Positions 1,713 through 21,290 of a stretch of 58,303 nt of DNA are shown here, piece after piece. Made by a program: the position numbers and the translations under genes. The DNA is from Candidatus Staskawiczbacteria bacterium RIFCSPHIGHO2_02_FULL_42_22 (GTDB lineage: Bacteria > Patescibacteriota > Minisyncoccia > Minisyncoccales > Staskawiczbacteraceae). Positions within the stretch are counted from its first letter, which is position 1. Every line of letters begins with the position of its first letter. The notes below the pieces were generated by a model. That model worked only from the letters and a program-made list of their open reading frames with translations. It was not told where the DNA came from and searched no databases. The stretch spans positions 15,401 to 73,703 of the forward strand of contig MHOT01000018.1 of the NCBI GenBank assembly GCA_001820175.1, read 5' to 3'.

Positions 1713-4700
1713 TTGTGTGGTACAATAAACAGAATTACTACTCGTAACGTTATTTTTTTAATGAAACGTAAACCAGTAACTCATTCCTTTGCTATACCTA
1801 TTAAACAGGCGAAAAAAGAGGCGCCGGTTTTTGTGAACGTGAGGATCATTGATAAGGATCGGTGGTTTTCCATCCGATCTTTTTTACGTTTCTTTGCCCG
1901 GGCAAAAAATTGGTATTGCAAACGGTTTGTTGGCTCTTTGTTGCCGTCATTGCGCGCGGCGGCGGCCGCCGCGCGGGTTGGACTTACTGTTTACAATCGT
2001 TTAAACGAGATTGCCACGGCGGCGCGCCCGCGGGCGCGCCGCCTCGCAATGACGTGTGGCAAAACGTTGCATTTGATGTACTTACACGCGTTAAAAAGAA
2101 TTTTCCCTTCCCGCCGCCTCTCCCTGCGCCAGTGGGTTGCCCTGGTACTCTTATTTGTTTCCTGCGCGACGGTTTCCGGTAATTTGCTTTTTTCGCGTGT
2201 CCAACGCTACGTGCTCGAAGGTAAAATAATTAAACAGGTGGCAACGGTGCAAACCGCTCCGGTGGTGGCCCATTTGCCCGTGCCATACACAACGCTGGTC
2301 AACCGCACCGCCATTACCAAAGACCGGTATTTAGTGGCCCTTCCCAAAGGGGCGACTAACATTACCGTCAAGCGAATTAGCCAGAAGGAAGCTCAAAAAA
2401 TTACCTCTTCAAATAATGAATTTTTAAGTGGCCAGCTAACTCTTTTAGAACGTCAGCAATTGGCGAGCGCCAACAGAAAAATTACCAGCGGTTCCCCCCT
2501 TAGCTTTATTAACTTCGGTCTTTTCGTTTCCGACGGATTAAGCGCCATGGTTGGCAGGTTTGCCAATATTTTTGCCAAAAAATTAATTGCCGCGGAAGCC
2601 AGCGCCAGCGAGGAAGCAGTTGTCCAAGAGCCGGCGCCCGAGGCGCCGGCTCCAGAAAGCGTAGCCCCCGAGCCGTCTGTCCCGGAATCTTCAGCCCCTG
2701 AACCAGTCGCACCCGAGGCGCCGCTCGTCGAAGTTCCCGTTCTGGACGAGGTCGGACCTCGTACAGCTTCCGAACTTCCCGATCCCATTGAATCGGAAAC
2801 AATTCCCGAAGTCCCGGAAAGCGAAACAATCCCCGCTGAATCCGCATCCGCCGACACCTCCACCAGCGACGATCCAACCGAATCCATCACCCCAGAAATA
2901 ATCGAAACTCCGGATGCTATTCTGGTTGATCTTTCAGAAGAAGGCCTTGATGAAAATATGCCTGACGAAACCGAAGCGCCAGCCACGGAAAACCGTGGAG
3001 GCCCGACGTCCACGGTTTCACAAGAACCTGTGTCATTTGCGCCATCAGGCGACCCCGTCTTTGAAAGTGCCGGACAGGTGCTGGGCGAATCAATTTCAAG
3101 TGCCGAGGCAATCCAAACCGTCTCTTCTTCTGACCAGCCGGTGGTTTCAAGTAATGAGATTGTCCCGATGCCAGAGCCATCAGGGATCCTCGATGAAGTC
3201 GGGACTTCGCCTTCGCCTCTGGACTCGGCTCGCAATGACGAGAGTGAGATTGCTTCGGATGCGCCTCGCAATGACGAAAGCAACGAAAGCGCGCCTGATC
3301 AAAACACAACAGACGATTCGTTATTGCCAGAAGCAGCGCAGAGTGACGAAGAGGAATTTATCCAAATTGATTACGAACTTCCCGCGCCGCAAATTACCGA
3401 GCAAGATACCGCCACTGGAAAGGAAGTAACGGTGTTTGCCGAAAACGAAGATCCAAAAAATCCTCTCACCAATGTATTGGCTTTCACTACCATACCGGAA
3501 ATTTTCAACGTGGGGCAGGAAAGTAAAATCCAAATAAAATGGGTTAATAATGACGGCCAAATAATGCCCTTTACCGCTCACGATACCGACCAAAATGGAA
3601 AACTGGATTACCTGGAATGGACTGTGCCGCATTTGTCCGAGCAAACTTTTAATATTATTTTCATTTCCAAGGCCTTCCAACTGGACCAGGATAAAAATAT
3701 TATTGCCGATATTTATGACCAGGTTTCGTTTCAAGACAATAACTATGCAACTATTGAAAACAATCAATACGTCCGAGTCACTTTTGAAATTCCCTTTACC
3801 AGCCAGAATAATATTAAATTATACGCAAAATCGGATACCATCGGCGCCATCGAAGTATATCCGGTGTACACTGATGCCGAAGGTAATCTGACCGAGGGGG
3901 ATATTATTGCCACTTCAGGCAATATTACCAATGAAGGATTTCATGAAATTTTGCTCACGAATTTGCAAACGCCAACGGAGGTTTTTGATTTGAAAATTAC
4001 GGGCGTCGCGCCGCCTGCGGGCGGCGCAGAGAGCGGCGCGACCCAAGCAATCTCCATCGACTACATCGTCTATGCCGATTTTGATTATAGTCCTAACAAA
4101 ATTCTCACCCCCACGGGCTATAAAAATATTTCAGAACTTAACATTGGTGACGAAATCATCGGTTACGAAAACGGCCAGCAAGTGGTCAATCAGGTGGAAA
4201 ACATAGAACAACGCAGACCAGAGGACTACCATTATTGGGAAAAAGATGAACAAGGAAATGAAACTAATTATACAGAAGTCCCTTTTACGTACTATTTAAT
4301 TAACGAGACATGGGAACTGTTTAAGGATCAATCCATTTTTACCAAAGATCGTTTGGTTCACGCTTCGGAACTAAATGTCGGTGACATCATCTACGATGCC
4401 AATCACCAGCCAATAAAAATTACCAGCATCCGTAATGGAGAAGATCACATCCAGTGGACTCGCTTTACGGTTTCGGGTAACCATACCTATATTGCCGATG
4501 GACTGTTAATGCACAACGCCAGCCGGTATTGGGTTGCATTGATAGATCCGTCAAACGTAAGTGAGGGTGGTTGGGGTAGCGATGCTCCGACGGGCGGCAG
4601 TTGCATGAGCCTTGTAGCCAGTGTTCCCGGCTCAAGCGATGTTGCTATATTTGATGCCGATTGTGATACATCCGCTAACATTGATGCCAACTGGAGTTTG

Positions 4701-7700
4701 GCCGGTTTTAGTATGGAAAGCGGGTACACCGGCACCGTCACCCAAAACACTACCATTACTTTGACGGTTGGCTCCAGTAATTATTCTCAATTGGGAGGAA
4801 CGTTTACCGTGGGTGATGCCGCCATTGACATTAACGGAAGTTTCACCCTTTCCAACGCCGGCACCGCTTTCACCAGCACCAGCGCCACCATGACTATTTC
4901 GGGAAGTTTAACCACTTCCAGCTCGCCGACGTTTACCCACAATTCGGGGACGGTGACCTTTGATGGAACTTCAACATCAAGCACTAGCGTTGATGCCTCT
5001 AGTGTTACGTTTAATGCAGTCACTATTAACAGGACAATTTCTACTGGTAGTTTTGCTCCGACTTTTACTGTAACCAGTAATACTACAATTCCCTTGGGCA
5101 ATTCTCCCACGCTTACATTAAATAATAGTGATACTGTTAATGGTGCCTACTATTTGACTAACAATGGTACTATTACCGTAGGAACCGGGACTTTTACCTC
5201 AACTGTAGATGGAGGTATTACTAATTCTGGGGGATCGACCATCTCCGGAAGCGTTACTTCTTGGACTCAGAACGGAAACATCACTAATAATGGAACCATT
5301 ACTCTGAGTAGTTTAGCTACCCTAGATGTTAATTCACAAACAAATGCCGCTGGAATTGCCTCAATTGGCTCGTTTACTAACGGTGCTAGTGATACCCTAA
5401 CTACTGCTTCTAGTCCCACTCTTACTATCAATGGGAGTTTAACCGTTGATAGCACCTCTACCTTTCCTACCAATGCCACCGTCACCTTTGATGGAGCCAT
5501 CGGTGCAAGTAGTACTGTCGATGCCTCAGGAGTTACCTTTACCTCGGTAACCATTAATCGTACTATCGCTACTGGCAGTTTGGCTCCCACTTTTACTGTA
5601 GCCAATGGTACTACCCTTCCCCTCGGTAACTCTCCAACTCTTACATTAAATAATACCGACACGGTAAATGGTCAGTATTACTTAACTAACAATGGTACCA
5701 TCACCGTAGGAACTGGAACTTTCACTTCAAATGTGGACGGGGGTATTACCAACTCTGTCACAACAGGAGTCATTTCAGGAAGCGTTACCGCCTGGACCCA
5801 AAATGGAAATATGACCAACAACGGCACGATTACCATGAGTAGCTTAGCCACGCTTGATGTTAATTCGGCTACCGGAACTGGTATCATTGGGTCGTTTACC
5901 AGTGGCTCCGCCTCGACATTAACCACCGCTGCCAGCCCCACAATGACTTTTAATGGGAGTTTGACGGTTACTTCTGGGGCCACCTTTCCCACCAATCCCA
6001 CCGTAACCTTTGACGGAGCCATTACTGCAAGTAGTACTGTTAATGCCTCAGGAGTTACCTTTGCCTCGGTAACTATTAACCGTAGCATTAGCAATGGTTC
6101 AGTTACCCCAACTTTCACGGTTACCTCTGGTACTACTTTGCCGTTAGGCAATTCTCCCACGCTTACATTGAATAACGCCGATACCGTAAATGGTCAGTAT
6201 TACTTAACTAACAATGGTACCATCACCGTAGGAACTGGAACTTTCACTTCAAATGTGGACGGGGGTATTACCAACTCTGTCACAACAGGAGTCATTTCAG
6301 GAAGCGTTACCGCCTGGACCCAAAATGGAAATATGACCAACAACGGCACGATTACCATGAGTAGCTTAGCCACGCTTGATGTTAATTCGGCTACCGGAAC
6401 TGGTATCATAGGATCCTTTACTGCCGGCGCAAGTTCTACCCTTACTACCGCCGCTACTCCTACGATGACTTTTAATGGGAGTTTAACGGTTACTTCTGGG
6501 GCTGTGTTTCCGGCCAGTTCAGCGGTTACTTTTGATGGCAGTACCACCAGTGGCACTTTAACTTGTGGAGGTGTGACGCTTGGCAGTTTTACGGTCAATA
6601 AAACCAGTTCGGGAACCGTTACGGTCGGTGATGATTGTACTATTTCCGGAGCCCTTACCCGAACCGATGGAGCCATTAACAATCCCGCCGCTGCCAAGGT
6701 TTGGACGGTGCAGGGAGCATTCAGCATGTCCACTACCGACACCTTTGGAGGCGCCAATCTTACCTTAACCATGGGCGGAAGCAGTGCCCAGACTATTACC
6801 CAAAACGCCGGCACGATGTCAGGCGTATTTAAAGTAGACAAAACCGGCAGCAACGCCGCCTCGCTTTCCACGAATTTTACCACCGGCACCACTTGCAATG
6901 TGGTGGAAGGGGCATTTGCTATTACCAATAAAACATTTACCTGTGGTTCGACTTTTACCGTGGAAGATGGTGGTACTTTTCAGCGCGCTGGTAGCGAAAC
7001 TACAACGGCGCCAACTCTAAACTCTGGTTCAACGGTTACCTACGTTGGGGATGGCGACGCCGCCACTGACACCATTACCATTACCGGCTCAAATACTGAT
7101 TATCATCATCTTATCCTTAACGCCACCGACGGCGCTTCAGATACTTTCCAGCTTGGAGCCGGCATTACCGTTGCCGGTAATTTTACCAATACGGCAGGTA
7201 CCTTTAATGCTAACACGCAAACGGTCACGTTGGACGGCACTGACCAGACCCTTGCAGGCAGTACTACCTTTGCCGCTTTAGTAAAACAGGAAACCACTAA
7301 CGATGCTACCAACAAAACGTTAACTTTTACTTCGGGAACTACAACGACCATTAGCAGCACCCTCATCTTAGATGGATTAGATGCCGACGATAACCTCATC
7401 ATCGCCGCTTCCGCCGCTAGTGCCGCCACCATTGACTTTACCGGATCCTCAACGTTTTCAACCACCGGCTACCTGACGGTTTCCTACAACACCGCCACCG
7501 ATAATTCAAGCGGGGTTTCGCTTCCCTTAAGCCCCGCCAATTCCACCGATTCGGGCAATACCACTGGCTGGTTTGCTCCCACGTATTCCATCGGCGGCAC
7601 CGTCTACACTGACGAAGGTGTTACCAATATAGGATCTTTAAAAACTGTGGCGATCTCTATCAACGGTGCGGCCGCAGCCGGCACCGACGACACCGATGCC

Positions 7701-10700
7701 AGCGGAGTATACTCCATCACCGGTCTTACCATCTCTGCCAACGACGTGCTCACTCTATATATAGACGGCGAAACCGAAAAGGGAGTAACGGTAACATTGG
7801 CCTCCGGGAGCGATCAAACCAGTGTTCATATTTTCCAAAACTATTTAATCACCCGTTGTGATAATGCCTGTTCGCTCACCAATACTAATTTAGACACTGG
7901 CGATAATAATGCTGATACCGATATTTCGGCAATTTATTCTGTTGTAAGTGACGATGACGGCGATCCCCTCACCATCGCCGCCGGCAAATCATTATACATT
8001 CCTGTTAGCCACACCTTCGCCCCGGGAGGTACGGTATCAGTTGGCGGCAACTTCTCCAACAACGGCACTTTCACCCACGGTTCTTCTACGGTAACTCTAA
8101 CCTCCACCTCCGCCAGCGCCACCTTAAAAACCAATGCTTCATCGTTGTATAATCTGACCCAAGACGGTTCTGAAGGCACTTACACCCTGCAGGATGCTTT
8201 AACGGTATCAAATAATCTAACCATTACCGCAGGAACTTTGGATACCAAGTCGGGCTCTAATTATGGCATTACCATCGGTAATAATTTTTTCAACGGCGGC
8301 ACCTTTACCGCTCAATCCGGCACCGTTACTTTCAATGCCACCGCCACTGGAAAAACCATCACTGATGCGGGAGGGGGGGCGCCCTTCTATAATTTAACTT
8401 TCAATGGCGTGGGAGGAGGGTGGACACTAGGAAATAATACAACAGTTAGCAATGTTTTAACCATTACGAATGGTACGTTAGCGCTAGGATTTAATATTAC
8501 CCTCACCTTATCCGGCACCACAGGTGCTCCCTTTTCGAATTCAGGCACCTTCACCGCGGGTACCAGTAGTGTCACTTATACTGGCAACAATACCGGAGGC
8601 AATACAACGATTGCCAATGTGACCTACAGCACCCTTCGGGTAAATAACGGAAGCGAAACCTACGTACTGGCCGGCGACACCACCGTCAATGCCAACCTTA
8701 CCATTTCGGCGGGAACGCTGGACGCGGTTGCCGGAAGTAATTACTCGTTGACCGTCGGCAATAACTATTCCAATGCAGGCACCTTTGCCGCACAGGAGGG
8801 TACCGTCACTTTCACCGCCACTGCTACAGGAAAAACCATTACTACTGGTGGTTCATCTTTTTACAATCTCACTTTCAATGGAGTAGGCGGCGGCTGGACT
8901 TTGCAAGATGCCGCCACGGTTTCAAATGTATTAACCATCACTAACGGAACCCTGGATGGGGGATCAGTTAATCTTACCCTTTCCGGGACCACCGGCACTC
9001 CCTTTACCAGTGCAGGTACCTTTACTGCCAACACCGGCACCGTTTTTTATACGGGCAACAACGCCGGCGGCAACACCACCATCGCCAATGTTACCTACTA
9101 CAATTTAGGTCCTGATAATGCCAGTGAAACGTTTGTTTTGGCGGGTAATACAACCGTTAACAATATTTTCGTGATGACTGCAAGCACCACTCTTGACGTC
9201 GTCAGCGGCCAGAATTATTCACTAAGTGTTGGTGGTAACTGGAATAACGCTGGTATTTTCACCGCCCGAAGCGGCACTGTCACTTTAACCTCCACCTCCG
9301 CCGGCGCCACACTCACTTCAGGCGGCTCCAGTTTTTACAACCTCACTCAAAACGGCTCGGGAGGAACGTATACGTTACAAGATGCCCTCGCCACCACCAA
9401 TAATTTGACCATCACCGCCGGAACTTTGGACACCAAGTCCGGCTCCGATTTTGGAGTAAGTATCGGTAATAATTATTCCAACTCCGGCACATTCACTCCT
9501 CGCTCCGGCACCGTCACCCTCACCGCCACCGCCACCGGCAAAACCATCACCTCGGGAACCGGGGGTTTCTACAACCTCACCTTCAATGGTTCCGGCGGCG
9601 GCTGGACTTTGCAAGATGCGACAACCGTCAGCAACGTATTAACGATTACCGCCGGCACCCTGGACGCCGGCTCTCAGACCCTCACGCTTTCCGGCACCAC
9701 CGGAACCCCCTTTAGCATTGCAGGCACTTTTACCGAATCCACCTCAACCGTAAGTTTTACCGGCAACAATGCTGGTGGTAATACCACCATTCCCGCCGAC
9801 ACCTACTATAACCTAACCGTCAATAATGCTTCGGAGGCCTATACTCTGGCAGGAGACATTACCGTCAGCCGCGTACTTACGGTCACCGCCGGCACCCTTG
9901 TTAGTACTTCGAAAACCATCACGCTTTCCGGCACCACCGGCACGCCATTTTCTGTTTCAGGCAGCTACAGCGTAACCACGGGAACCGTCACCTACACCGG
10001 CAACAATTCCATCGGCAACACCATCGTCGCCAATGTTATCTACAATAACTTGACGCTCAATAATGCATCGGAGACATTTGACTTGGCCGGAAATACCACT
10101 GTCGCCGCCAACCTCACCATCACCGCCGGAACCTTGGACGCGGTTTCGGGAAGCAACTATACATTAAATGTCGCCGGTAACTGGTCAAACTCCGGAACCT
10201 TTACCGCCCAAAATGGCACCGTCACCTTGGACGGCACCAATCAGTCAATCACCGGCACCACCACGTTTTACAATCTCTCCAAAACAGAAGGATTAAATGA
10301 CAGCACCGACGAAACCCTTACGTTCACGGCCTCCACCACCTATACCGTCAGCAACACATTAACCCTCGACGGCCGCGATGCCAACGACCGCATCAATATC
10401 GTTTCCAGTGCTGGGGGAACCAAGTTTACCCTAGACCTAACGGGCGCCGCCCAAACCGCCGACTTCCTCGATGTCATTGATTCCCAGACCTCAACCAACA
10501 ATAATACTTGCACCAGTTGTGTAAATTCGGGCAACACCGACAGCGCCGAGTCCGCCCCTCACTGGGTGTTTTCAGCGGGAACGGTCACCTGGACCGGCAC
10601 CACCTCAACGGTTTGGTCAACCGGTACCAATTGGGATTCGGGCTCAGCACCCAACGACACCGATAACGTGGTGATTGCCGATGTTACCAATGACCCCATT

Positions 10701-13700
10701 TTAGATGGCAACAAAACGGTTAATGATTTGACGATTAATACTGGGGGTGTGCTGGATGCCAATACCACCAGCAATTACGGTCTGACGCTGACGGGCAATT
10801 GGAGTAATGCTGGCACTTTTACCGCGCGGGCAGGGACGGTTAATTTAACTTCTACTTCTTCAAGCGCCACCCTCACCAGCGGAAGTTCTTCTTTCTACAA
10901 CCTCACCCAAAATGGTTCGGGAGGTACCTACACCCTGCAGGATCACTTAACTACTGCTGCTACCCTCACCCTTACCCAGGGAATCTTTGCTGCTAATGAC
11001 AAAAATGTAACAGTGAACGTATTTAGTTCTTCTAACTCCAATACAAGAACTATCACCATGGGAACAGGAACCTGGACGTTAACTGGTAATAATACTACCA
11101 TCTGGAATACTTCAACTAATACCAACTTAACGCTTAATAGAGGCAATGCGATTGTTTCTAATTATAGTGGCTCTACGGGAACTAGAACTATAACAGGGTC
11201 TTCCATAGATGAAGCCACGAGTGCTGATTTTAATATTACCGCAGGATCAGATTCGGTCTTTATTACCGATGGAACTTCCGTACGCAATTTAGATTTCACG
11301 GGGTTTACTGGAACACTGTCTTCAAGTGACTGGCATATCTACGGTAATTTGGTTCTAGCTTCGGGCATGACGATAACGGGAGCAGGCAACAATATTACAT
11401 TTCGTGCAACTTCAGGTCCAAAAACGATTACCAGTAACGGAAAAACCCTTGGATATTCCCTTATCTTTAATGGCACTGGAGGCAGTTGGCAGCTTGTCGA
11501 TGACCTTAGTCTTGATTCCGGCAGTACTTTAACGATTACCCGAGGCACCTTTGACGCTAATAACCAGAACCTAACGACAGGACGACTCTCTTCTTCAAAC
11601 TCGAATACCCGTACTATCACCATGGGAAGCGGCACATGGACGTTAGCTGGCACCACTGGCACGCCTTGGGATACTTCTACTAGTACCAATCTGACACTCA
11701 ATGTTAATACCTCTACGGTGGCCTACGCGGGTAATAATGCGGGTGGCAATACCACCGTCGCCAATGTCACCTACAATAACCTGACGCTCAACAATTCTTC
11801 TGAAACGTTTGACTTGGGCGGAAACACTACCGTCAATAATAATGTCACTATCACCGCGGGAACGCTGGATGCCGTATCTGGCTCAAACTACACCATGAGC
11901 GTCGGAGGCAACTTTGCCAACTCCGGAACCTTCACCGCCCGCAGCGGCACCGTCACCCTCACTTCAACCTCCGCCAGCGCCACACTCACTTCCGGCGGCT
12001 CCAGTTTTTACAATCTCACCCAAAACGGCTCGGGCGGCACCTACACGTTGCAGGATGCGTTAACCGCTTCAAATAATCTAACCATTACCGCCGGAACTCT
12101 GGACACCAAGTCCGGCTCCGATTTTGGAGTAAGTATCGGTAATAATTATTCCAACTCCGGCACCTTTACCGCCCGATCCGGCACCGTCACCCTCACTTCA
12201 ACCTCCGCCAGCGCCACACTCACTTCCGGCGGCTCCAGTTTTTACAATCTCACCCAAAACGGCTCGGGAGGAACTTATACATTGCAAGATGCCCTCGCCA
12301 CCACCAATAATTTAACCATCACCGCCGGCACGCTCGACACCAAATCGGGCAGCAATTTTGCAATTTCCGTCGGCGGCAACTTTGCAAACTCGGGAACGTT
12401 TACCGCCCGCGAAGGCACCGTCACCCTCACCTCAACCTCCGCCAGCGCCACGCTCGACCCCGGAGGAACCACCTTTTACAACCTCACCCAAAACGGCTCA
12501 GGCGGCACCTACACCTTGCAGGGCGGCCTTGGTACGAGCAACAATCTAACCATCACTGCCGGCACCCTCGACACCAAGTCCGGTTCAAACTACGGTGTCT
12601 CGGTCGGAGGCACCTGGTCACGATCGGGAACGTTTACCGCGCGCTCCGCCAATTTCACCCTTACCGGAACTTCCACCTTTTCAGATACCATGTCGTTTTA
12701 CAATTTCATCATTAATGGTTCGGGCATCACCGCCACGCTGGGAGCCGACCTGACTGCCACGGGTACCTTAACCGTCACTCAGGGAACCTTAACTGCGGTT
12801 ACCTACAATGTAACTGCCGCCAATGTTGCCTCCGCCAACACCAACACCCGAACTATTTCCATGGGCACGGGCACTTGGACCTTATCGGGCACGGGAACCG
12901 TGTGGGATACTTCAACGACTACTAACCTTACCTTAAACGAAAGCACCTCCACTATTTCTTTGACTGACACTTCTTCTACTGTCAAAACCTTTGCCGGCGG
13001 CGGTGAGACATTTTACAATGTAAGTATTACTGCCTCCGGCACTGGGGCAATTATCGTAAGCGGAAGCAACACTTTCAACAACTTCACCATCAATCCGCCC
13101 AAGACCGTCACCTTTACTTCATCAACGACGCAAACCATCGGTGGGACGTTTTCCTGTACGGGAACTTCAGGTAACGTCATCACCATTAACGCTTCAACGG
13201 GCGGAACCGCCGCTACGCTTTCTAAGTCCTCGGGCACCGTATCTTGCGACTACCTACACTTAACTGATTCGGCCGCTACGGGGGGAGCTACTTGGGACCC
13301 GGGAGACAATTCCACCGACAACGGCGGCAACAGCGGCTGGGTGTTTAACACTGCCCCCTCTATTTCCGCCGGTCCTTCGGACCTTGGGGCCCTGTCGTCT
13401 CCCGCCAACGCCGGCTCGAACGTGACGTTCACCGCCACCGCCACCGATACCCAATCAGACAATTATTATTTAGCCGTTTGTAAAACCAATAGCATCACCG
13501 CTGCCAATAGCGCCGCCCCTACCTGCGGCGGAGGCAGTTGGGCCATTTCCAGCGCCACCGCTGCGGGGAGCCAGGCCTCGGTAACCTATGCCACGGTAGC
13601 AGGCGACAGCGAATCAAACGTTTGGTACGCATTTGTCTGTGATCAAAATAGCAACTCCTTCTGTTCTTCTTCCAGCCAGGGTTTGGGCAGCAACGGCTCG

Positions 13701-15590
13701 CCTTTTGAGGTCAACCACGTTCCTGCTTTCACGGCCGTCTCTAATACCTCCGGGGCCGTTACCACGGGTAACGCGGTTTCGTTTACTTCAACGGCCTCTG
13801 ATTCCGACACCGATTCCTCTGCCGATACCGTCACATTATATATCTGCAAATCCAACGATTTCGCTTCCGGCGTCTGCGGCTCGGCCGGCACCTGGTGCAG
13901 TTCATCAGCCAGTTCCTCTGATCCCTCGTGCAATTACACCATTGTCCAAGACGACGGCGACAGCGACCACTCCTACTATGCTTATATCGTTGATAACCAC
14001 AGTTTTGAATCAACTTCCAATCCCCGCACCGGCACCTTCACCTCTGATGTCATCGTTTCGTTTGGCGGAGGTGGTGGTGGTGGTGGAGGAGGAGGCGGAG
14101 GAGGTGGTGGTGGCGGCGGCGGCTCCGGCGGCGGTGGCTCAACCACGCCCCCCGAAGAATCCACCCCGGCCAGCCCCATCACCCCTATTATTGACATCAT
14201 CTCGGGGCCCATCAGCCAGGCCGGAGAAATCATCCAGGATATCGGCCAGGAAATCATCGATATTATTTTACCAAAGCCCAAACCATTGTCCCTTCCTCCC
14301 ATTCAAGAAGTGGTTGACACAAAACCACCGTTGGCGCTTACGGGCGATTGGGATCTGCTCTTTGGAGCCCAGATCAGAGAGTTCCTCTTCCATCCGTTGC
14401 CCTCTGACTTGAGCACTCTGGCCCAAAAGTTGCCCGAGGTAAAAAAGACCTTCACCGACACAGGGGTATCCACTCTGAATATGGTGGTGCAAAAATTACA
14501 GGGAGTGGAGTTGGCTATTCCGGGGATAAACCAGCGAATTGCGGCCCAAGAAATCGCTCTGCAAAAAATCGCCGATTCCCCAATATTGCCAGGAACCGAA
14601 CTGGCGGCTCCGGCATTGCCTGATAAAAAACTGCCAGCCGGCCAGCTTGGTCTAAACCAGCTTACCCTGCCCAAGAACATTCCTCTGGCCGAACTTCCGG
14701 CCATCGTTAAAACCTCCCTCCCTGGCGAGGTGGTCTTTGCCAGAACCCAAAATGAACTGATTGATTTTAATATCATTGTTTCCTTAAACGACCGCGGGCA
14801 GGCCGAGCAAAGGATTAACGCGGTTTCCGGCACCAATTTAAAGTTTGCCGTAAAGCCCTTAGCTCCGGTCGAAAGCGTTAAAGGGTACCTGGTGCTTTTG
14901 TCGGCTCAAACCAAAAAAACTGTATTTGAAGCACCGCTCAAGTTCCTGAAGGCCTCACTGGCCTTTGCTAATCCGCAGTTTGCCAAAAATCTCGAGGGCG
15001 AACCCGCCATTGAAAAAAAGTTCCTCTTAGCCGAATTTGACTATGCCGATCCCGATGAAGATGGCATCTGGACTGCCGAGGTTACGGCTCCCGCAGTTGA
15101 GGGAGAGTACGAGGTGATTACCATTATGAATTACAAGGACGTTACCATTGGTAACAGGGAAGTGCGGCTGATTGTGGTGGTAGATCCCGAGGGCTATGTG
15201 TATAGTAATATCATGGGCGGAGAATTACGAATTAACCAAGCCGAGGTTTCTTTGTATTGGCTCAACCCCGTGACAAAAAATTATGAGCTTTGGCCCGGTG
15301 ATGGCTTCCAGCAAAAAAACCCCCAGGTAACTGATAAAACCGGACGCTACGCCTTTTTGGTGCCGGAGGGAATGTACTACCTGACCGCCACCGCCCAAAA
15401 CTACCAGAAATTCCAATCAGAGGAATTTGGGGTCAGTGAAAACAACGGTGTCCACATTAACATTGAGATGGAAAGCAAGCTGTGGTGGTGGCTTAAATAT
15501 CTAGATTGGAAAACCTTGGCCGTGGTGGGGATGTTTGTATTATTGTCTTATATTATTATTAGTGGTAAAATGAGGAAAAGAAATCGGTAA
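1713..15590 (+). CDS. Giant (~4,600 aa) surface/adhesin-like protein: N-terminal TM, Pro/Glu-rich linker, Hint domain, ~3,000 aa of Thr/Ser/Gly/Asn-rich beta-helix-like repeats, Cys-containing Ig-like domains, poly-Gly linker, carboxypeptidase-regulatory-like domain, C-terminal TM
   Basis: Uninterrupted ORF; hydrophobic segment WVALVLLFVSCATVSG; repeat TFTARSGTVTLTSTSASATLTSGGSSFYNLTQNGSGGTYTLQD; C-terminal hydrophobic helix followed by KMRKRNR. True start uncertain (GTG 1713, ATG 1761 or ATG 2076). Confidence 0.9.
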   Translation: MCGTINRITTRNVIFLMKRKPVTHSFAIPIKQAKKEAPVFVNVRIIDKDRWFSIRSFLRFFARAKNWYCKRFVGSLLPSLRAAAAAARVGLTVYNRLNEIATAARPRARRLAMTCGKTLHLMYLHALKRIFPSRRLSLRQWVALVLLFVSCATVSGNLLFSRVQRYVLEGKIIKQVATVQTAPVVAHLPVPYTTLVNRTAITKDRYLVALPKGATNITVKRISQKEAQKITSSNNEFLSGQLTLLERQQLASANRKITSGSPLSFINFGLFVSDGLSAMVGRFANIFAKKLIAAEASASEEAVVQEPAPEAPAPESVAPEPSVPESSAPEPVAPEAPLVEVPVLDEVGPRTASELPDPIESETIPEVPESETIPAESASADTSTSDDPTESITPEIIETPDAILVDLSEEGLDENMPDETEAPATENRGGPTSTVSQEPVSFAPSGDPVFESAGQVLGESISSAEAIQTVSSSDQPVVSSNEIVPMPEPSGILDEVGTSPSPLDSARNDESEIASDAPRNDESNESAPDQNTTDDSLLPEAAQSDEEEFIQIDYELPAPQITEQDTATGKEVTVFAENEDPKNPLTNVLAFTTIPEIFNVGQESKIQIKWVNNDGQIMPFTAHDTDQNGKLDYLEWTVPHLSEQTFNIIFISKAFQLDQDKNIIADIYDQVSFQDNNYATIENNQYVRVTFEIPFTSQNNIKLYAKSDTIGAIEVYPVYTDAEGNLTEGDIIATSGNITNEGFHEILLTNLQTPTEVFDLKITGVAPPAGGAESGATQAISIDYIVYADFDYSPNKILTPTGYKNISELNIGDEIIGYENGQQVVNQVENIEQRRPEDYHYWEKDEQGNETNYTEVPFTYYLINETWELFKDQSIFTKDRLVHASELNVGDIIYDANHQPIKITSIRNGEDHIQWTRFTVSGNHTYIADGLLMHNASRYWVALIDPSNVSEGGWGSDAPTGGSCMSLVASVPGSSDVAIFDADCDTSANIDANWSLAGFSMESGYTGTVTQNTTITLTVGSSNYSQLGGTFTVGDAAIDINGSFTLSNAGTAFTSTSATMTISGSLTTSSSPTFTHNSGTVTFDGTSTSSTSVDASSVTFNAVTINRTISTGSFAPTFTVTSNTTIPLGNSPTLTLNNSDTVNGAYYLTNNGTITVGTGTFTSTVDGGITNSGGSTISGSVTSWTQNGNITNNGTITLSSLATLDVNSQTNAAGIASIGSFTNGASDTLTTASSPTLTINGSLTVDSTSTFPTNATVTFDGAIGASSTVDASGVTFTSVTINRTIATGSLAPTFTVANGTTLPLGNSPTLTLNNTDTVNGQYYLTNNGTITVGTGTFTSNVDGGITNSVTTGVISGSVTAWTQNGNMTNNGTITMSSLATLDVNSATGTGIIGSFTSGSASTLTTAASPTMTFNGSLTVTSGATFPTNPTVTFDGAITASSTVNASGVTFASVTINRSISNGSVTPTFTVTSGTTLPLGNSPTLTLNNADTVNGQYYLTNNGTITVGTGTFTSNVDGGITNSVTTGVISGSVTAWTQNGNMTNNGTITMSSLATLDVNSATGTGIIGSFTAGASSTLTTAATPTMTFNGSLTVTSGAVFPASSAVTFDGSTTSGTLTCGGVTLGSFTVNKTSSGTVTVGDDCTISGALTRTDGAINNPAAAKVWTVQGAFSMSTTDTFGGANLTLTMGGSSAQTITQNAGTMSGVFKVDKTGSNAASLSTNFTTGTTCNVVEGAFAITNKTFTCGSTFTVEDGGTFQRAGSETTTAPTLNSGSTVTYVGDGDAATDTITITGSNTDYHHLILNATDGASDTFQLGAGITVAGNFTNTAGTFNANTQTVTLDGTDQTLAGSTTFAALVKQETTNDATNKTLTFTSGTTTTISSTLILDGLDADDNLIIAASAASAATIDFTGSSTFSTTGYLTVSYNTATDNSSGVSLPLSPANSTDSGNTTGWFAPTYSIGGTVYTDEGVTNIGSLKTVAISINGAAAAGTDDTDASGVYSITGLTISANDVLTLYIDGETEKGVTVTLASGSDQTSVHIFQNYLITRCDNACSLTNTNLDTGDNNADTDISAIYSVVSDDDGDPLTIAAGKSLYIPVSHTFAPGGTVSVGGNFSNNGTFTHGSSTVTLTSTSASATLKTNASSLYNLTQDGSEGTYTLQDALTVSNNLTITAGTLDTKSGSNYGITIGNNFFNGGTFTAQSGTVTFNATATGKTITDAGGGAPFYNLTFNGVGGGWTLGNNTTVSNVLTITNGTLALGFNITLTLSGTTGAPFSNSGTFTAGTSSVTYTGNNTGGNTTIANVTYSTLRVNNGSETYVLAGDTTVNANLTISAGTLDAVAGSNYSLTVGNNYSNAGTFAAQEGTVTFTATATGKTITTGGSSFYNLTFNGVGGGWTLQDAATVSNVLTITNGTLDGGSVNLTLSGTTGTPFTSAGTFTANTGTVFYTGNNAGGNTTIANVTYYNLGPDNASETFVLAGNTTVNNIFVMTASTTLDVVSGQNYSLSVGGNWNNAGIFTARSGTVTLTSTSAGATLTSGGSSFYNLTQNGSGGTYTLQDALATTNNLTITAGTLDTKSGSDFGVSIGNNYSNSGTFTPRSGTVTLTATATGKTITSGTGGFYNLTFNGSGGGWTLQDATTVSNVLTITAGTLDAGSQTLTLSGTTGTPFSIAGTFTESTSTVSFTGNNAGGNTTIPADTYYNLTVNNASEAYTLAGDITVSRVLTVTAGTLVSTSKTITLSGTTGTPFSVSGSYSVTTGTVTYTGNNSIGNTIVANVIYNNLTLNNASETFDLAGNTTVAANLTITAGTLDAVSGSNYTLNVAGNWSNSGTFTAQNGTVTLDGTNQSITGTTTFYNLSKTEGLNDSTDETLTFTASTTYTVSNTLTLDGRDANDRINIVSSAGGTKFTLDLTGAAQTADFLDVIDSQTSTNNNTCTSCVNSGNTDSAESAPHWVFSAGTVTWTGTTSTVWSTGTNWDSGSAPNDTDNVVIADVTNDPILDGNKTVNDLTINTGGVLDANTTSNYGLTLTGNWSNAGTFTARAGTVNLTSTSSSATLTSGSSSFYNLTQNGSGGTYTLQDHLTTAATLTLTQGIFAANDKNVTVNVFSSSNSNTRTITMGTGTWTLTGNNTTIWNTSTNTNLTLNRGNAIVSNYSGSTGTRTITGSSIDEATSADFNITAGSDSVFITDGTSVRNLDFTGFTGTLSSSDWHIYGNLVLASGMTITGAGNNITFRATSGPKTITSNGKTLGYSLIFNGTGGSWQLVDDLSLDSGSTLTITRGTFDANNQNLTTGRLSSSNSNTRTITMGSGTWTLAGTTGTPWDTSTSTNLTLNVNTSTVAYAGNNAGGNTTVANVTYNNLTLNNSSETFDLGGNTTVNNNVTITAGTLDAVSGSNYTMSVGGNFANSGTFTARSGTVTLTSTSASATLTSGGSSFYNLTQNGSGGTYTLQDALTASNNLTITAGTLDTKSGSDFGVSIGNNYSNSGTFTARSGTVTLTSTSASATLTSGGSSFYNLTQNGSGGTYTLQDALATTNNLTITAGTLDTKSGSNFAISVGGNFANSGTFTAREGTVTLTSTSASATLDPGGTTFYNLTQNGSGGTYTLQGGLGTSNNLTITAGTLDTKSGSNYGVSVGGTWSRSGTFTARSANFTLTGTSTFSDTMSFYNFIINGSGITATLGADLTATGTLTVTQGTLTAVTYNVTAANVASANTNTRTISMGTGTWTLSGTGTVWDTSTTTNLTLNESTSTISLTDTSSTVKTFAGGGETFYNVSITASGTGAIIVSGSNTFNNFTINPPKTVTFTSSTTQTIGGTFSCTGTSGNVITINASTGGTAATLSKSSGTVSCDYLHLTDSAATGGATWDPGDNSTDNGGNSGWVFNTAPSISAGPSDLGALSSPANAGSNVTFTATATDTQSDNYYLAVCKTNSITAANSAAPTCGGGSWAISSATAAGSQASVTYATVAGDSESNVWYAFVCDQNSNSFCSSSSQGLGSNGSPFEVNHVPAFTAVSNTSGAVTTGNAVSFTSTASDSDTDSSADTVTLYICKSNDFASGVCGSAGTWCSSSASSSDPSCNYTIVQDDGDSDHSYYAYIVDNHSFESTSNPRTGTFTSDVIVSFGGGGGGGGGGGGGGGGGGGGSGGGGSTTPPEESTPASPITPIIDIISGPISQAGEIIQDIGQEIIDIILPKPKPLSLPPIQEVVDTKPPLALTGDWDLLFGAQIREFLFHPLPSDLSTLAQKLPEVKKTFTDTGVSTLNMVVQKLQGVELAIPGINQRIAAQEIALQKIADSPILPGTELAAPALPDKKLPAGQLGLNQLTLPKNIPLAELPAIVKTSLPGEVVFARTQNELIDFNIIVSLNDRGQAEQRINAVSGTNLKFAVKPLAPVESVKGYLVLLSAQTKKTVFEAPLKFLKASLAFANPQFAKNLEGEPAIEKKFLLAEFDYADPDEDGIWTAEVTAPAVEGEYEVITIMNYKDVTIGNREVRLIVVVDPEGYVYSNIMGGELRINQAEVSLYWLNPVTKNYELWPGDGFQQKNPQVTDKTGRYAFLVPEGMYYLTATAQNYQKFQSEEFGVSENNGVHINIEMESKLWWWLKYLDWKTLAVVGMFVLLSYIIISGKMRKRNR
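1945..2054. repeat. Family D palindrome in the 5' end of the giant ORF
   Basis: CGTCATTGCG...CGCAATGACG termini with GC-rich internal hairpins. Confidence 0.85.
4077..4517 (+). other. Hint (intein-like/BIL) domain within the giant protein, aa ~789-935
   Basis: KILTPTGYKNISELNIGDEI (block A-like), ASELNVGDII, FTVSGNHTYIADGLLMHN (blocks F/G with terminal His-Asn). Confidence 0.88.
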
Positions 15591-17242: not shown

Positions 17243-20122
17243 ATGAAACTCGATGTTATTAAAATTCGCGGGGCCAGGGTGCATAACTTAAAAAATATTG
17301 ACCTGGACATCCCCAAAAATAAATTGGTGGTGATTACCGGGCTTTCGGGCAGCGGTAAATCATCATTAGCATTTGATACGTTGTATGCCGAAGGCCAGAG
17401 GCGCTATGTGGAAAGTTTATCGGCTTATGCCCGGCAATTTTTGGGGGTTATGGATAAGCCCGACGTTGATAAAATAGAAGGCATCAGTCCGGCTATTTCT
17501 ATTGACCAGCGCAAGTCAGTGCACAATCCCCGTAGTACCGTGGGGACTACCACGGAAATTTATGACTACCTGCGGCTTTTGTTTGCGCGTATCGGCAAGC
17601 CCCATTGCCCGAATTGCGGCAAACTAATTTCAAAGCAAACCGTGGATCAAATTGTTGACCAGGTATTAACCATTAAAGAAGGCGCGGAAATTTCAATACT
17701 GGGCCCCGTTATACGAGGAAAAAAGGGTGAACACACCGCAGTTTTGCAAGAAATTCAGCGGGCGGGTTTTGTGCGGGTAAGAATTGATAAAGATATGTAT
17801 CTAATAGAAGAAGCACTGCAAAAGCTACTAGATAAGCAAAAAAAACATGACATTGAAGCCGTTGTTGATCGGTTGGTATTGGTAAATGACTTGGATAGGT
17901 CTCGGTTAGTGGATTCCCTGGAAACCGCTTTAAAGTTAGGAAAAGGCATTGTCATACTTAATACCCAATACAAACCACCTAATACTAAAATTAAATCAGA
18001 AGATTTAATTTTTAGCGAACACTTCGCCTGTGAGGATTGCGGCATTTCCCTGGCCGAACTTGAACCCCGCATGTTTTCGTTTAATAATCCGTATGGCGCT
18101 TGCCCCGAATGCACGGGTCTTGGAGAAAAATTGGAGGTTTCGGCTGACTTGGTTATGCCCAATAAAAATTTGACGCTGGCTGAAGGCGCTATTTTTGCCT
18201 GGTCGAATGCCAGCCATAAAGTGGGTCGGCAGGGGTATTATCATTGGAATCTTTCGGAATTGGCACGTGCATACCACTTTTCTTTAGATGTGCCGGTCAA
18301 GAATTTACCCCCAAAAATTATTGATATTATCTTGCATGGAGATAATGCGGGTTTTGAGGGAGTCATTGCAAACTTGGAAAGACGATACCATGAAACTGAT
18401 TCCGAATGGACGCGTCAGGAAATTGACCAGTATATGGTAATTAAACAGTGCCCCATGTGTCAGGGAAAACGATTAAAACCGGAAGTGCTGGCGATTACCG
18501 TAGCCAGTGTTTCTGTTGATGTTATTGTCAAGATGCCCGTCGATGATTTGCAGAAATTTTTTTCCGCCTTGCCGAAACAACTGAGTGCTAATGATGTAAA
18601 AATCAGCACGCCGATTACCAAAGAAATTAATGATCGGCTTCAATTTTTGGTTGATGTGGGACTCGGGTATTTGAATTTAGACAGAAAGGCGGTTACCTTA
18701 GCGGGGGGAGAAGAACAACGGATACGCCTGGCCACCCAAATTGGATCAAAATTATCCGGAGTGCTATATATTTTAGACGAACCGTCAATTGGATTGCACG
18801 CGCGCGACCAGCACCGGTTAATTCATACGTTATTGCAACTGCGCGATTTAGGAAACACGGTGATTGTGGTAGAACACGATCCACAGACCATGATGGCGTC
18901 GGATTGGATTGTGGATATTGGGCCCGGTGCCGGCAAGCACGGGGGACGAGTTATCTTCCAGGGAACACCAGGGGCACTCCTCAAATCTAATACATTGACC
19001 GGACAATATCTATCAGGGAGGAAAACAGTTTCTGGAGAGGTATTAAGTAGTAAGTATAAAGTATTAAGCAAAGGCCAAAAAGTTGGTTTAAATACTAAAT
19101 ACCCAATACCAAATACCAAATACTTAACCGTCAAGGGTGCCAAAGAGCATAATTTAAAAAACATTGATGTGGCTTTTCCTTTGGGTAAATTTATTTGTGT
19201 GACCGGTGTTTCGGGCAGCGGCAAGTCGTCGCTTGTAAATGACATTCTGGCCCGCGCATTGCTAAAGCAATTTTACCGAGCAAAAGATGAACCTGGAATG
19301 CATACAAAAATTACCGGAACCGAACACATTAATAAGGTGGTCTTGGTTGACCAGTCGCCCATTGGTCGGACTCCGCGGTCAAACCCCGCAACTTATACTG
19401 GCGCATTTTCATTTATTCGTGATATTTTTACCCAAACGAAAGAATCGCGGATTCGCGGATATTTAGCGGGCCGTTTTAGTTTTAATGTAAAAGGCGGCCG
19501 GTGCGAGGCCTGTGAAGGACAGGGTACCAAAAAAGTAGAAATGTATTTTTTGCCGGATATTTATGTAGAATGCGAGGAGTGTCGCGGTAAGCGTTACAGC
19601 AAGGAGGTGCTGGAAATTACTTATAAAGATAAAAATATTGCCGACGTGCTCAAAATGACCATTGAAGAAGCCGGTGAGTTTTTCGAACATATCCCGGGGG
19701 TGTACGATAAAATGAAAACGTTAAAAGAGGTGGGGCTTTCTTACGTTGAACTCGGCCAGGCGGCCACTTCACTGTCGGGCGGAGAGGCCCAGCGGATAAA
19801 ACTGGCTACCGAACTTTCACGCCGCGACACCGGTAACACATTATATATTTTAGATGAACCAACCACCGGTTTGCACTTTGAAGATATTAAGAAACTGATT
19901 TCAGTATTAAGAAATTTGGTCGATAAAGGAAATACAGTATTAGTTATTGAACACAATATTTCGCTTATTGCTGTTTCGGATTGGATTATAGATTTAGGGC
20001 CAGAGGGAGGAGAAAAAGGTGGCGGGATTGTTGTCGAGGGAATTCCACAAGATATTGCAAAAAATAAAAAATCTTATACTGCCAAATTCTTAAGAGATGT
20101 TTTTTTTGGCAAGATTATATAA
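17243..20122 (+). CDS. uvrA: Excinuclease ABC subunit A
   Basis: [10 protein letters not shown], two Walker A motifs (GLSGSGKSS; GVSGSGKSS), zinc fingers, [12 protein letters not shown] and [12 protein letters not shown] signatures. Confidence 0.98.
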
Positions 20123-21290
20123 TTCTGTTATTTCTTTTAATAATATTTTTTTCTGCTTTTTTTAAATCTCTTAATCTTTTTGAATGCTTTAATAAAGGTT
20201 TTAACATTTTCAATAATTTTAATAAAGGTTTCTTTTTGCTTATGTATAAGTACCAGTGGTTTTGCTTATACATGGTTCCATCGTTTTTGACGTGACCTTT
20301 TTTAACTCGAATTTTTGGCGGATTGCAAGGGATCCCTATTTCTAATAAATTCTTGTAAATATACCACAGGATGTTTTTATCGTAAGAAGCTAGCGTAAAA
20401 CCGGCAACATTGCTTTTTGCGATAAAGATAGCACCTTCTGCATCTGTGTAACCTGCTAAAAAAGATAAAAAGTGGGCCTTATTTTTTTTAACCCAATCGG
20501 GCATCGAATCTTTTTTCAATAAAAGGAAGTCGAAAGACCTATTTAATAAAACTGTAAAAACTCTGTTGTTATCTTCCCTTGCCTTACTTACCCATACATG
20601 GCCATATTTCTCAAACAATTTTTTAAATAAATGAATTTGTTGGATTTTTGTAGAGGTTGTGCTAATTACAATTAATTTTTTAGAGGGTAATAGTTTTGCA
20701 TAAAGATCCCCCAATTTAAAGCCGATTAGATAAGCTTTTTCATGTAAATCATTTGAGAAATCATATTTTTTATACTTAGTATGATAAAAATCAGCACTTC
20801 TAGTTTTTAATCCATAATCTTTCATTAATTTTGAGACATAGACATGGTGGGTATTAAGTTTTTTCGCAATTTGTTTTTGGGTTAATTTGTTCTTATAGTA
20901 AAGATTAACCAACACCGTCCTCTTTATTCTTTTTTCCTGCCAACCAAGCTTTATCGATTCCAATATTGTTCTAAGGGGAATATCTTGTTTGATCATTTCT
21001 CTCCTTATAGTTTCTCTAGAATAATGTAATTTTTTAGCAATGACAATGATAGATAATTTATCTTCAAGGTATAACTTCTTGAGAATTCCTTTTGGTATAG
21101 ATATTATTTTCTTTTGACTCGCTATTCTTACTGCTACTTTTTGTTTTCTTGGAGTAATACCAAATTTTTCCATTCTTTTGTTTATGGTGGTTATATTACA
21201 ATTTAATAGAGAAGCGATTTCTTTTCTAGAAAGAAGATTTTGATTATAGAGTTCCTCAAGAATTTTTTTAGAAATATCATTTCTTCTCAT
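20115..21290 (-). CDS. Free-standing LAGLIDADG-type endonuclease-like protein with N-terminal HTH repeats
   Basis: [12 protein letters not shown] and [14 protein letters not shown] motifs; three L.xLY...LS..xIA..L units in the N-terminal half. Confidence 0.8.

Follow-up and report, generated by a model that had tools for sequence, protein, structure and literature searches.

A stripped-down Hint domain shared by a giant bacterial surface protein and phage fibre-like proteins: a probable self-removing maturation module

Here we describe a giant surface protein encoded in a 58,303-nucleotide stretch of the genome of Candidatus Staskawiczbacteria bacterium RIFCSPHIGHO2_02_FULL_42_22 (contig MHOT01000018.1, positions 15,401 to 73,703 of the forward strand; hereafter the window), and the Hint domain embedded in it, which appears to have lost the N-terminal chemistry of Hint domains while keeping the residues for asparagine cyclisation. 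We put at roughly 0.6 the probability that, as the residue pattern suggests, Asn935 of this domain cyclises and cuts the N935–A936 bond, with no splicing, N-terminal cleavage or toxin release. The stripped-down domain is probably a maturation module that removes itself, of a type for which no description was found. Residues are numbered from TTG 1713; an alternative start lies at ATG 1761, and if that is the real start every residue number is 16 lower. The features that carry the argument are the following.

1713..15590, forward strand: giant surface-protein open reading frame, 4625 aa from TTG 1713, stop-free translation.
4077..4517, forward strand: Hint domain, with the linker DFDYSPN at aa 789–795 and the folded core at K796–N935 (profiles, AlphaFold2, Foldseek).
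4329..4334, forward strand: Q873–S874 at the position of the block B His; the Gln is invariant and the Ser nearly invariant in the subfamily (alignment).
4359..4361, forward strand: H883, a subfamily-specific invariant His (VxHA) without counterpart in canonical inteins or bacterial intein-like domains (BILs) (alignment).
4482..4484, forward strand: H924, the block F His (F:13), kept in 29/30 members (alignment).
4512..4520, forward strand: H934–N935/A936, with the predicted scissile bond for Asn cyclisation (conservation).
4518..4667, forward strand: passenger start, ASRYWV followed by a degenerate GGGSSxNWxATxNTNW...ASVPxSxDDVFFD cap motif (alignment).

Residues 795–935 of the giant protein form a genuine Hint fold, as the original prediction had proposed from the letters of the DNA. 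Four Hint-type Pfam families match the region, all below threshold; the match to PT-HINT (PF07591) has an E value of 1e-3 and covers profile positions 2–133 of 137. By comparison, the intein C-terminal model TIGR01443 (intein_Cterm) scores above its cut-off (16.3 vs 15.6 bits). PT-HINT is matched by 23 of 27 relatives at E ≤ 0.01, with a best value of 1.7e-9; against its gathering threshold of 27.7 bits the window's domain reaches 19.2–19.8 bits, and of the members scanned one by one a single relative, L043, passes with 28.7 bits. Searched against the PDB sequences, a six-sequence family profile finds the gp41-1 intein at E 6e-6 and, at E 1.6e-3, the C. thermocellum BIL 2lwy. In a first AlphaFold2 model, built on 27 relatives, the predicted local distance difference test score (pLDDT) is ~90 across the Hint domain, and a Foldseek search with this model gives a best E value of 2e-7 and template-modelling (TM) scores of up to 0.78. 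Among the matches listed at E ≤ 1e-3 (48), all are inteins, BILs or Hedgehog Hint domains, with target-normalised TM scores of 0.65–0.78; the best, at E 2e-7 to 1e-4, are Tetrahymena BIL2 (6y75), gp41-1 (6qaz), BIL 2lwy, class 3 DnaB inteins, Mtu RecA and Hedgehog (1at0). The β-fold carries blocks A, B, F and G in the order of the Hint superfamily.

Block correspondences were fixed by alignment to gp41-1, to the canonical intein of locus L056 and to six canonical BILs of the same phylum. In this alignment, intein position 1 corresponds to Phe790, the block B T-x-x-H to F-K-D-Q873 and F:4 to Arg917, while F:13 is His924, G:6 is His934, G:7 is Asn935 and +1 is Ala936. The strings quoted by the original prediction are present, and its coordinates agree to within one residue: DFDYSPNKILTP starts at aa 789 (nt 4077), and the leading Ala, off by one, is aa 788. 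Its residue inventory, which read as wiring for C-terminal cleavage only, also stands. The position-1 equivalent reads F/F/F/T/P/S across the members aligned, with no conserved nucleophile such as the Cys/Ser said to be missing. The block B position, where FKDQSIF places Q873 instead of His, is [FY]-x-[DN]-Q in the subfamily, with the Gln invariant, and the position of the block F Asp is indeed Arg, varying among R/S/K/E in the subfamily. The phage members go further: they start M-[KQ]-I-L-T-P-x-G-Y, aligned to positions 6–14 of a canonical intein beginning CIDLDSKILTPSGY, so that the N-terminal junction is physically missing there.

The C-terminal residues behave in the opposite way. Among 30 distinct members, the terminal His-Asn is found in 30/30 and the block F His, within SGNHTY in the window, in 29/30; they are followed by Ala at +1 (29/30; Pro in 1/30), Ser/Thr at +2 (30/30), Arg at +3 (29/30), Tyr/Phe at +4 and Trp at +5 (30/30). 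Mean column identity is 37% in the 27-row alignment (A3) of members, and the most distant members are 26–35% identical to the window's Hint domain. Gln873, His883, Asn826, Asn864 and Asp891 are further invariant positions. Seventeen metagenome and three related viral loci were retrieved by interior patterns with the junction unused, and all of them show the junction; because the retrieval patterns lay inside the domain, junction invariance in these 20 loci is no ascertainment artefact. By comparison, the genome loci L007–L009 were retrieved with the junction pattern HNASRYWV and are set aside as evidence of junction conservation, because the junction peptide was the query. Canonical Hint domains in the same phylum keep GGCF...T-x-x-H...VHN, so the residue losses are specific to the subfamily. 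The alignments thus strongly support that the N-terminal chemistry has been lost and that exactly the set for Asn cyclisation has been kept.

In the mechanism that we propose, Asn935 would form a succinimide, aided by His934 (block G) and His924 (block F), and its cyclisation would break the N935–A936 peptide bond (codons at nt 4515–4517 and 4518–4520; string LLMHN/ASRYWV). With neither a residue-1 nucleophile nor the block B Thr/His present in the alignment, no thioester step, splicing or N-terminal cleavage would be expected. One fragment would stay N-anchored and comprise the transmembrane helix, the acidic linker, the VPHLS domain and the Hint domain ending in succinimide or Asn; the other would be a ~3,690-aa β-rich passenger that begins ASRYW and is held by its own C-terminal transmembrane helix. 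A protein tethered at both ends would become a free-ended fibre with an ASRYW tip. Related reactions have been described: Asn cyclisation uncoupled from steps 1–2 gives C-terminal cleavage and C-extein release (PMC4031507, PMC7765530), type A BILs cleave their own C-terminus through the terminal Asn (PMC4031507, PMC7765530), and Npu DnaE without the block F Asp (D118G) shows faster C-terminal cleavage (PMC7765530). The remaining parts of the protein are located as follows, with a small conserved domain between the first transmembrane helix and the acidic linker.

2136..2192, forward strand: N-terminal transmembrane helix, aa 142–160, VALVLLFVSCATVSGNLLF, preceded by a basic cytoplasmic tail (hydropathy scan; homologs share the layout).
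2580..3392, forward strand: acidic Pro/Glu/Ser-rich linker, aa ~290–560, with in-frame translations of repeat elements (composition, sequence).
3390..4076, forward strand: conserved VPHLS domain (motif WTVPHLS), aa ~560–788, ending ...ISIDYIV, the last part of the N-terminal head module (homolog search).
4518..14012, forward strand: Thr/Ser/Gly/Asn-rich repetitive β-strand passenger, ~3,200 aa (composition, sequence).
15327..15473, forward strand: CarboxypepD_reg-like domain, 25.8 bits, below the Pfam cut-off of 32.3 (Pfam; homologs keep it).
15516..15572, forward strand: C-terminal transmembrane anchor, aa 4602–4620 (hydropathy scan).

The contexts in which the module is found indicate that it is a portable unit. 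It occurs after a transmembrane helix and linker, directly after a cleavable-looking signal peptide (...FASA/D-SVSQILTPTGY, in metagenome-assembled genomes (MAGs) of Staskawiczbacteria), and as the first residues of signal-peptide-less proteins of a viral group (MKILTPTGY, MQILTPTGY, MAQIKTPTGY). In all of them it lies directly before a passenger starting A-S/T-R-Y/F-W-V-G-G. On IMG/VR contigs, the Hint gene lies between a collagen-like tail-fibre gene before it and genes for a glycosyltransferase and an endolysin after it, and the proteins of a 508-aa cluster are tandem paralogs on a 50-kb contig that also carries a terminase. At L057:1610-4679, two tandem 508-aa Met-Hint-ASRYWVGGG paralogs are followed by two glycosyltransferases, with the terminase ~9 kb downstream. 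Because the same passenger start is found in secreted, membrane-tethered and phage proteins, the role of the module would most likely be tied to folding, capping or timing of the passenger cap, not to export or symbiosis in particular. The original prediction had considered host attachment in an episymbiont plausible for a self-maturing adhesin; this is not supported by the finding of the module after signal peptides and in phage fibre-like proteins, which ties its role to the β-rich ASRYWVGGG passenger rather than to host attachment as such. Speculatively, its general role would probably be that of a mask or chaperone for the passenger's N-terminal cap that then removes itself.

The subfamily counts rest on pattern-seeded scans and are lower bounds. 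Nine subfamily loci were found among 185,579 species genomes. In 400 other genomes of the same phylum, a hidden Markov model of the domain interior found no further member, only canonical Cys1/T-x-x-H Hint domains, and tblastn with a phage member as query matched none of 50,697 deposited phage genomes. PHROGs holds no family for the phage protein, NCBIfam holds no specific model, only the generic intein C-terminal motif, and no description of the subfamily was found in the open literature on Hint domains with tail fibres or with Patescibacteria, the Candidate Phyla Radiation (CPR).

The head of the giant protein has a much wider distribution than the Hint domain. A word-index search matched 44 giant homologs, and an exhaustive search returned 1125 representatives at E ≤ 1e-10, nearly all of them matched in the VPHLS domain only. 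In nearly all homologs the head ends ...IDYIVDP and a different passenger follows at once; the Hint domain follows IDYIV only in the window, in P0002, P0046 and P0047 and in a few metagenome loci, and the full residue set is kept in 5/5 members of this context. P0004 provides a natural control: it shares the head, its passenger is 47% identical to that of the window protein (E 8e-89), and it has no Hint domain. The upstream 935 aa had been taken for a dedicated pro-region, which we abandon: the transmembrane–linker–VPHLS module heads more than 1000 Hint-less proteins, P0004 among them. The order of VPHLS domain, Hint domain and AxRYWV was seen in five members; the Hint domain also occurs in other contexts, and most VPHLS heads are Hint-less. 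From these comparisons the VPHLS domain looks like a conserved base with swappable passengers. The domain tree groups the window's copy with the four others from the VPHLS context and one from Saccharibacteria in a supported clade (98/93), which points to one fusion event joining the Hint domain to the VPHLS head.

Further observations concern these proteins and their linkers. The VPHLS domain is Pfam-less and a very common head of CPR giant proteins, in which unrelated passengers include LamG, BspA-like repeats, PATR and FN3. In a Saccharibacteria MAG, the closest relative of the window's Hint domain is followed by a TAG at precisely the codon of the invariant Trp in the NTNW motif (L001:6442-6444), after which the frame is open for 553 aa; this reflects a nonsense mutation (pseudogene) or else an error of assembly. 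The linker of the window protein contains a duplicated ...ARNDESEIASDAPRNDESNES... (window ~3205–3275), an in-frame translation of a short repeat element. A further such translation, VAPPAGGAESGATQA, is added shortly before the VPHLS domain ends (window ~4008–4050), and homologs do not have it. Similar insertions of the RNDE / VIPAEAGIQ type are seen in the linkers of the homologs P0004, P0011, P0019 and P0021.

Our comparison with known systems places the subfamily in no intein class and in neither BIL type A nor type B, because a defining feature fails in each. Class 1 inteins have Cys/Ser/Thr at position 1, Thr-x-x-His in block B, a C-terminal His-Asn and Cys/Ser/Thr at +1, of which the subfamily shares the His-Asn; they reside in conserved housekeeping motifs, often with an endonuclease, whereas the present domains, of ~141 aa, lie in hypervariable surface or phage proteins and carry no endonuclease. 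[quoted passage not shown] Type B BILs have no block G similarity, whereas the C-terminus here aligns with ...NDILTHN of gp41-1 and scores above the TIGR01443 cut-off. Type A BILs (Amitai 2003; Dassa 2004; PDB 2lwy) are closer: they share the mini Hint fold, the terminal His-Asn without a +1 nucleophile and the location in variable regions of secreted or surface proteins, and 2lwy is among the best sequence and fold matches of the subfamily. They differ in that a Cys/Ser start and the block B T-x-x-H form a thioester, so that they cleave at both ends and can ligate. The subfamily has neither of these features; a Gln and a His of its own are invariant, ASRYWVGGG is the fixed partner motif downstream, and its phage members do not have positions 1–5.

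PT-HINT, the pretoxin Hint domain of polymorphic toxins, is the best-scoring Pfam family and is likewise predicted to release what lies downstream by autoproteolysis. There a toxin follows, with an adjacent immunity gene; here a 3,690-aa structural passenger or a phage fibre follows, and the canonical N-terminal Cys is absent. A Pfam-type domain scan and the neighbouring genes revealed no toxin domain in the giant protein and no adjoining immunity gene, and its C-terminus is a CarboxypepD_reg-like domain with a transmembrane helix. Toxin release of the PT-HINT type was rejected on these grounds, in agreement with the original prediction. Another parallel is engineered: in C-terminal-cleaving inteins (the C1A Ssp DnaB and Mxe GyrA mini-inteins; Npu DnaE D118G) the nucleophile is gone, the block F Asp is deleted or exchanged, and uncoupled Asn cyclisation frees the C-extein alone (PMC7765530). 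These are laboratory constructs derived from splicing inteins, whereas the subfamily is a natural conserved lineage. By analogy, the module may thus resemble most the C-terminal half-reaction of type A BILs or PT-HINT, together with the C1A or F:4-mutant inteins.

Two functional parallels lie outside the Hint fold. Asparagine peptide lyases, reportedly described by Rawlings et al. in 2011, are said to include the intra-barrel cleavage of serine protease autotransporters of Enterobacteriaceae and viral capsid maturation cleavages; a single-turnover Asn cyclisation would there mature a surface passenger or a virion protein, but the folds are unrelated and the analogy is functional only. The C-terminal intramolecular chaperones of phage tailspikes and fibres (peptidase S74) are self-removing terminal domains that use Ser-Lys chemistry. 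They have another fold and lie at the C-terminus, unlike the present N-terminal Hint module.

Canonical Hint domains were also observed in several settings. Two are BIL-type and from the same phylum: at L016:~1000-1900 (genome G372), two tandem canonical Hint domains with GGG between them lie in one 568-aa secreted protein, and in genome G211 (L021/L034) two small paralogs that neighbour each other carry canonical Hint domains, each immediately preceded by a Cys-rich stretch (CECGGCACGGCSGGCF). L011 and L022 (genomes G020 and G245) carry canonical Cys1 Hint domains inside CPR proteins of ~1,750–1,860 aa, whose flanks resemble alpha-2-macroglobulin-like proteins. The canonical intein used as alignment yardstick (CIDLDSKILTPSGY...; L056:3589-5637) is on a giant-virus MAG contig; its centre has, by eye, the appearance of a homing-endonuclease-type insert, and the upstream sequence of its host gene resembles a sugar-nucleotide dehydratase.

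Several observations weigh against cleavage at N935–A936. F:13 is Ser in L007 and +1 is Pro in L051. The block B His, which is assigned to the N-terminal step, has given way to an invariant Gln, and a new invariant His883 is present, so that the active site does not amount simply to one half of an intein and may work by a different chemistry. In a second AlphaFold model, of the Hint domain with 245 aa of passenger, pLDDT falls below 50 at model residues 143–174, junction included, and β strands appear after the first ~30 passenger residues; such low predicted confidence at the junction does not favour the mechanism either. The Hint-less P0004 indicates that the same architecture works without cleavage, and phage N-terminal domains usually dock to the virion, which favours retention over removal. 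The last two points also speak for the main alternative, in which the Hint domain has no catalytic role and has been reused for structure, docking or binding (for example virion attachment in the phages or a spacer in the CPR protein), and HN-ASRYW is conserved as a rigid neck to the passenger. It would fit with the loss of the N-terminal catalytic residues, with the viability of P0004 and with the position of the phage gene directly after a tail-fibre gene, since phage receptor-binding proteins usually dock by their N-termini. Moreover, RYWVGG-like caps are present without Hint domain in the paralogs P0012 and P0015, so that part of the junction motif (RYWVGG) belongs to the passenger. Against this alternative, exactly the Asn-cyclisation set (F:13 His, G:6 His, G:7 Asn and a small +1 residue) stays invariant at 26–35% identity, and we know of no Hint domain without C-terminal cleavage (Hedgehog, type B BILs) that keeps a terminal His-Asn. 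We regard a non-catalytic role as unlikely, although it has to be taken seriously.

Asn cyclisation could also be real and its product matter more than the cut itself, if the Hint succinimide or the Ala936 α-amine went on to react covalently, for instance by forming a cross-link with another surface or virion component. The invariant Q873, H883, N826 and N864, which have no role in standard intein chemistry, hint at such extra chemistry, and type A BILs ligate through the free amine that Asn cyclisation provides (PMC4031507); but the domain has no thioester donor and no known partner, and the idea is purely speculative and, in our judgement, improbable. We give hardly any credence to an intein or BIL that still splices non-canonically (class 2, class 3 or type A BIL aminolysis) or to a decaying selfish intein. 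The Hint fold with its terminal His-Asn and PT-HINT as the nearest Pfam family would agree with such an origin, but +1 is Ala rather than Cys/Ser/Thr, F:4 is R/S/K/E rather than Cys and the residue-1 nucleophile is missing; the phage members have no N-extein, and there is no homing endonuclease. In addition, the module is placed at a variable domain boundary and not within a conserved motif of a host, and strong purifying selection acts on it in unrelated contexts. Splicing and intein decay were rejected for the lack of a +1 nucleophile, Cys1 and endonuclease and for this conservation. Beyond cleavage itself, we suggest only tentatively, and with less than even confidence, that the subfamily may constitute a distinct natural Hint class: a single-cut Asn lyase without N-terminal junction, common to the receptor-binding fibres of phages and to giant adhesins in ultrasmall bacteria, where it would act as an N-terminal self-removing cap that times the release of the ASRYWVGGG tip.

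The Hint module is single-copy in the source genome (821 kb, 30 contigs, 95% complete). The genes neighbouring the giant gene are uvrC, a PaaX-like gene, uvrA, a gene for a protein with helix-turn-helix (HTH) and LAGLIDADG domains, and groEL. The HTH-LAGLIDADG protein (window 20115–21290, reverse strand) is free-standing, has 391 aa with several HTH motifs and a LAGLIDADG_3 domain, and adjoins uvrA. The G+C content is 46–55%, with negative GC skew, at window 2001–14000, within the giant gene, and 31–44% elsewhere in the window; this deviation may come from a high content of Thr/Ser/Gly/Ala codons or from an origin outside the genome.

Single-turnover catalysis by Hint domains is textbook knowledge, and an N-terminal nucleophile is the starting point of every natural type known to us (inteins, Hedgehog, BIL types A and B, PT-HINT). 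If the mechanism proposed here is true, a conserved lineage that keeps the Asn-cyclisation half alone would mean that the two half-reactions can evolve apart, and it would offer a ready-made, compact, ~130-aa thiol-free C-terminal-cleaving tag. It would also provide a simple maturation step for the enormous unannotated surface proteins of the CPR and for a group of uncultured phage fibres, one module being common to phage fibres and CPR surface fibres.

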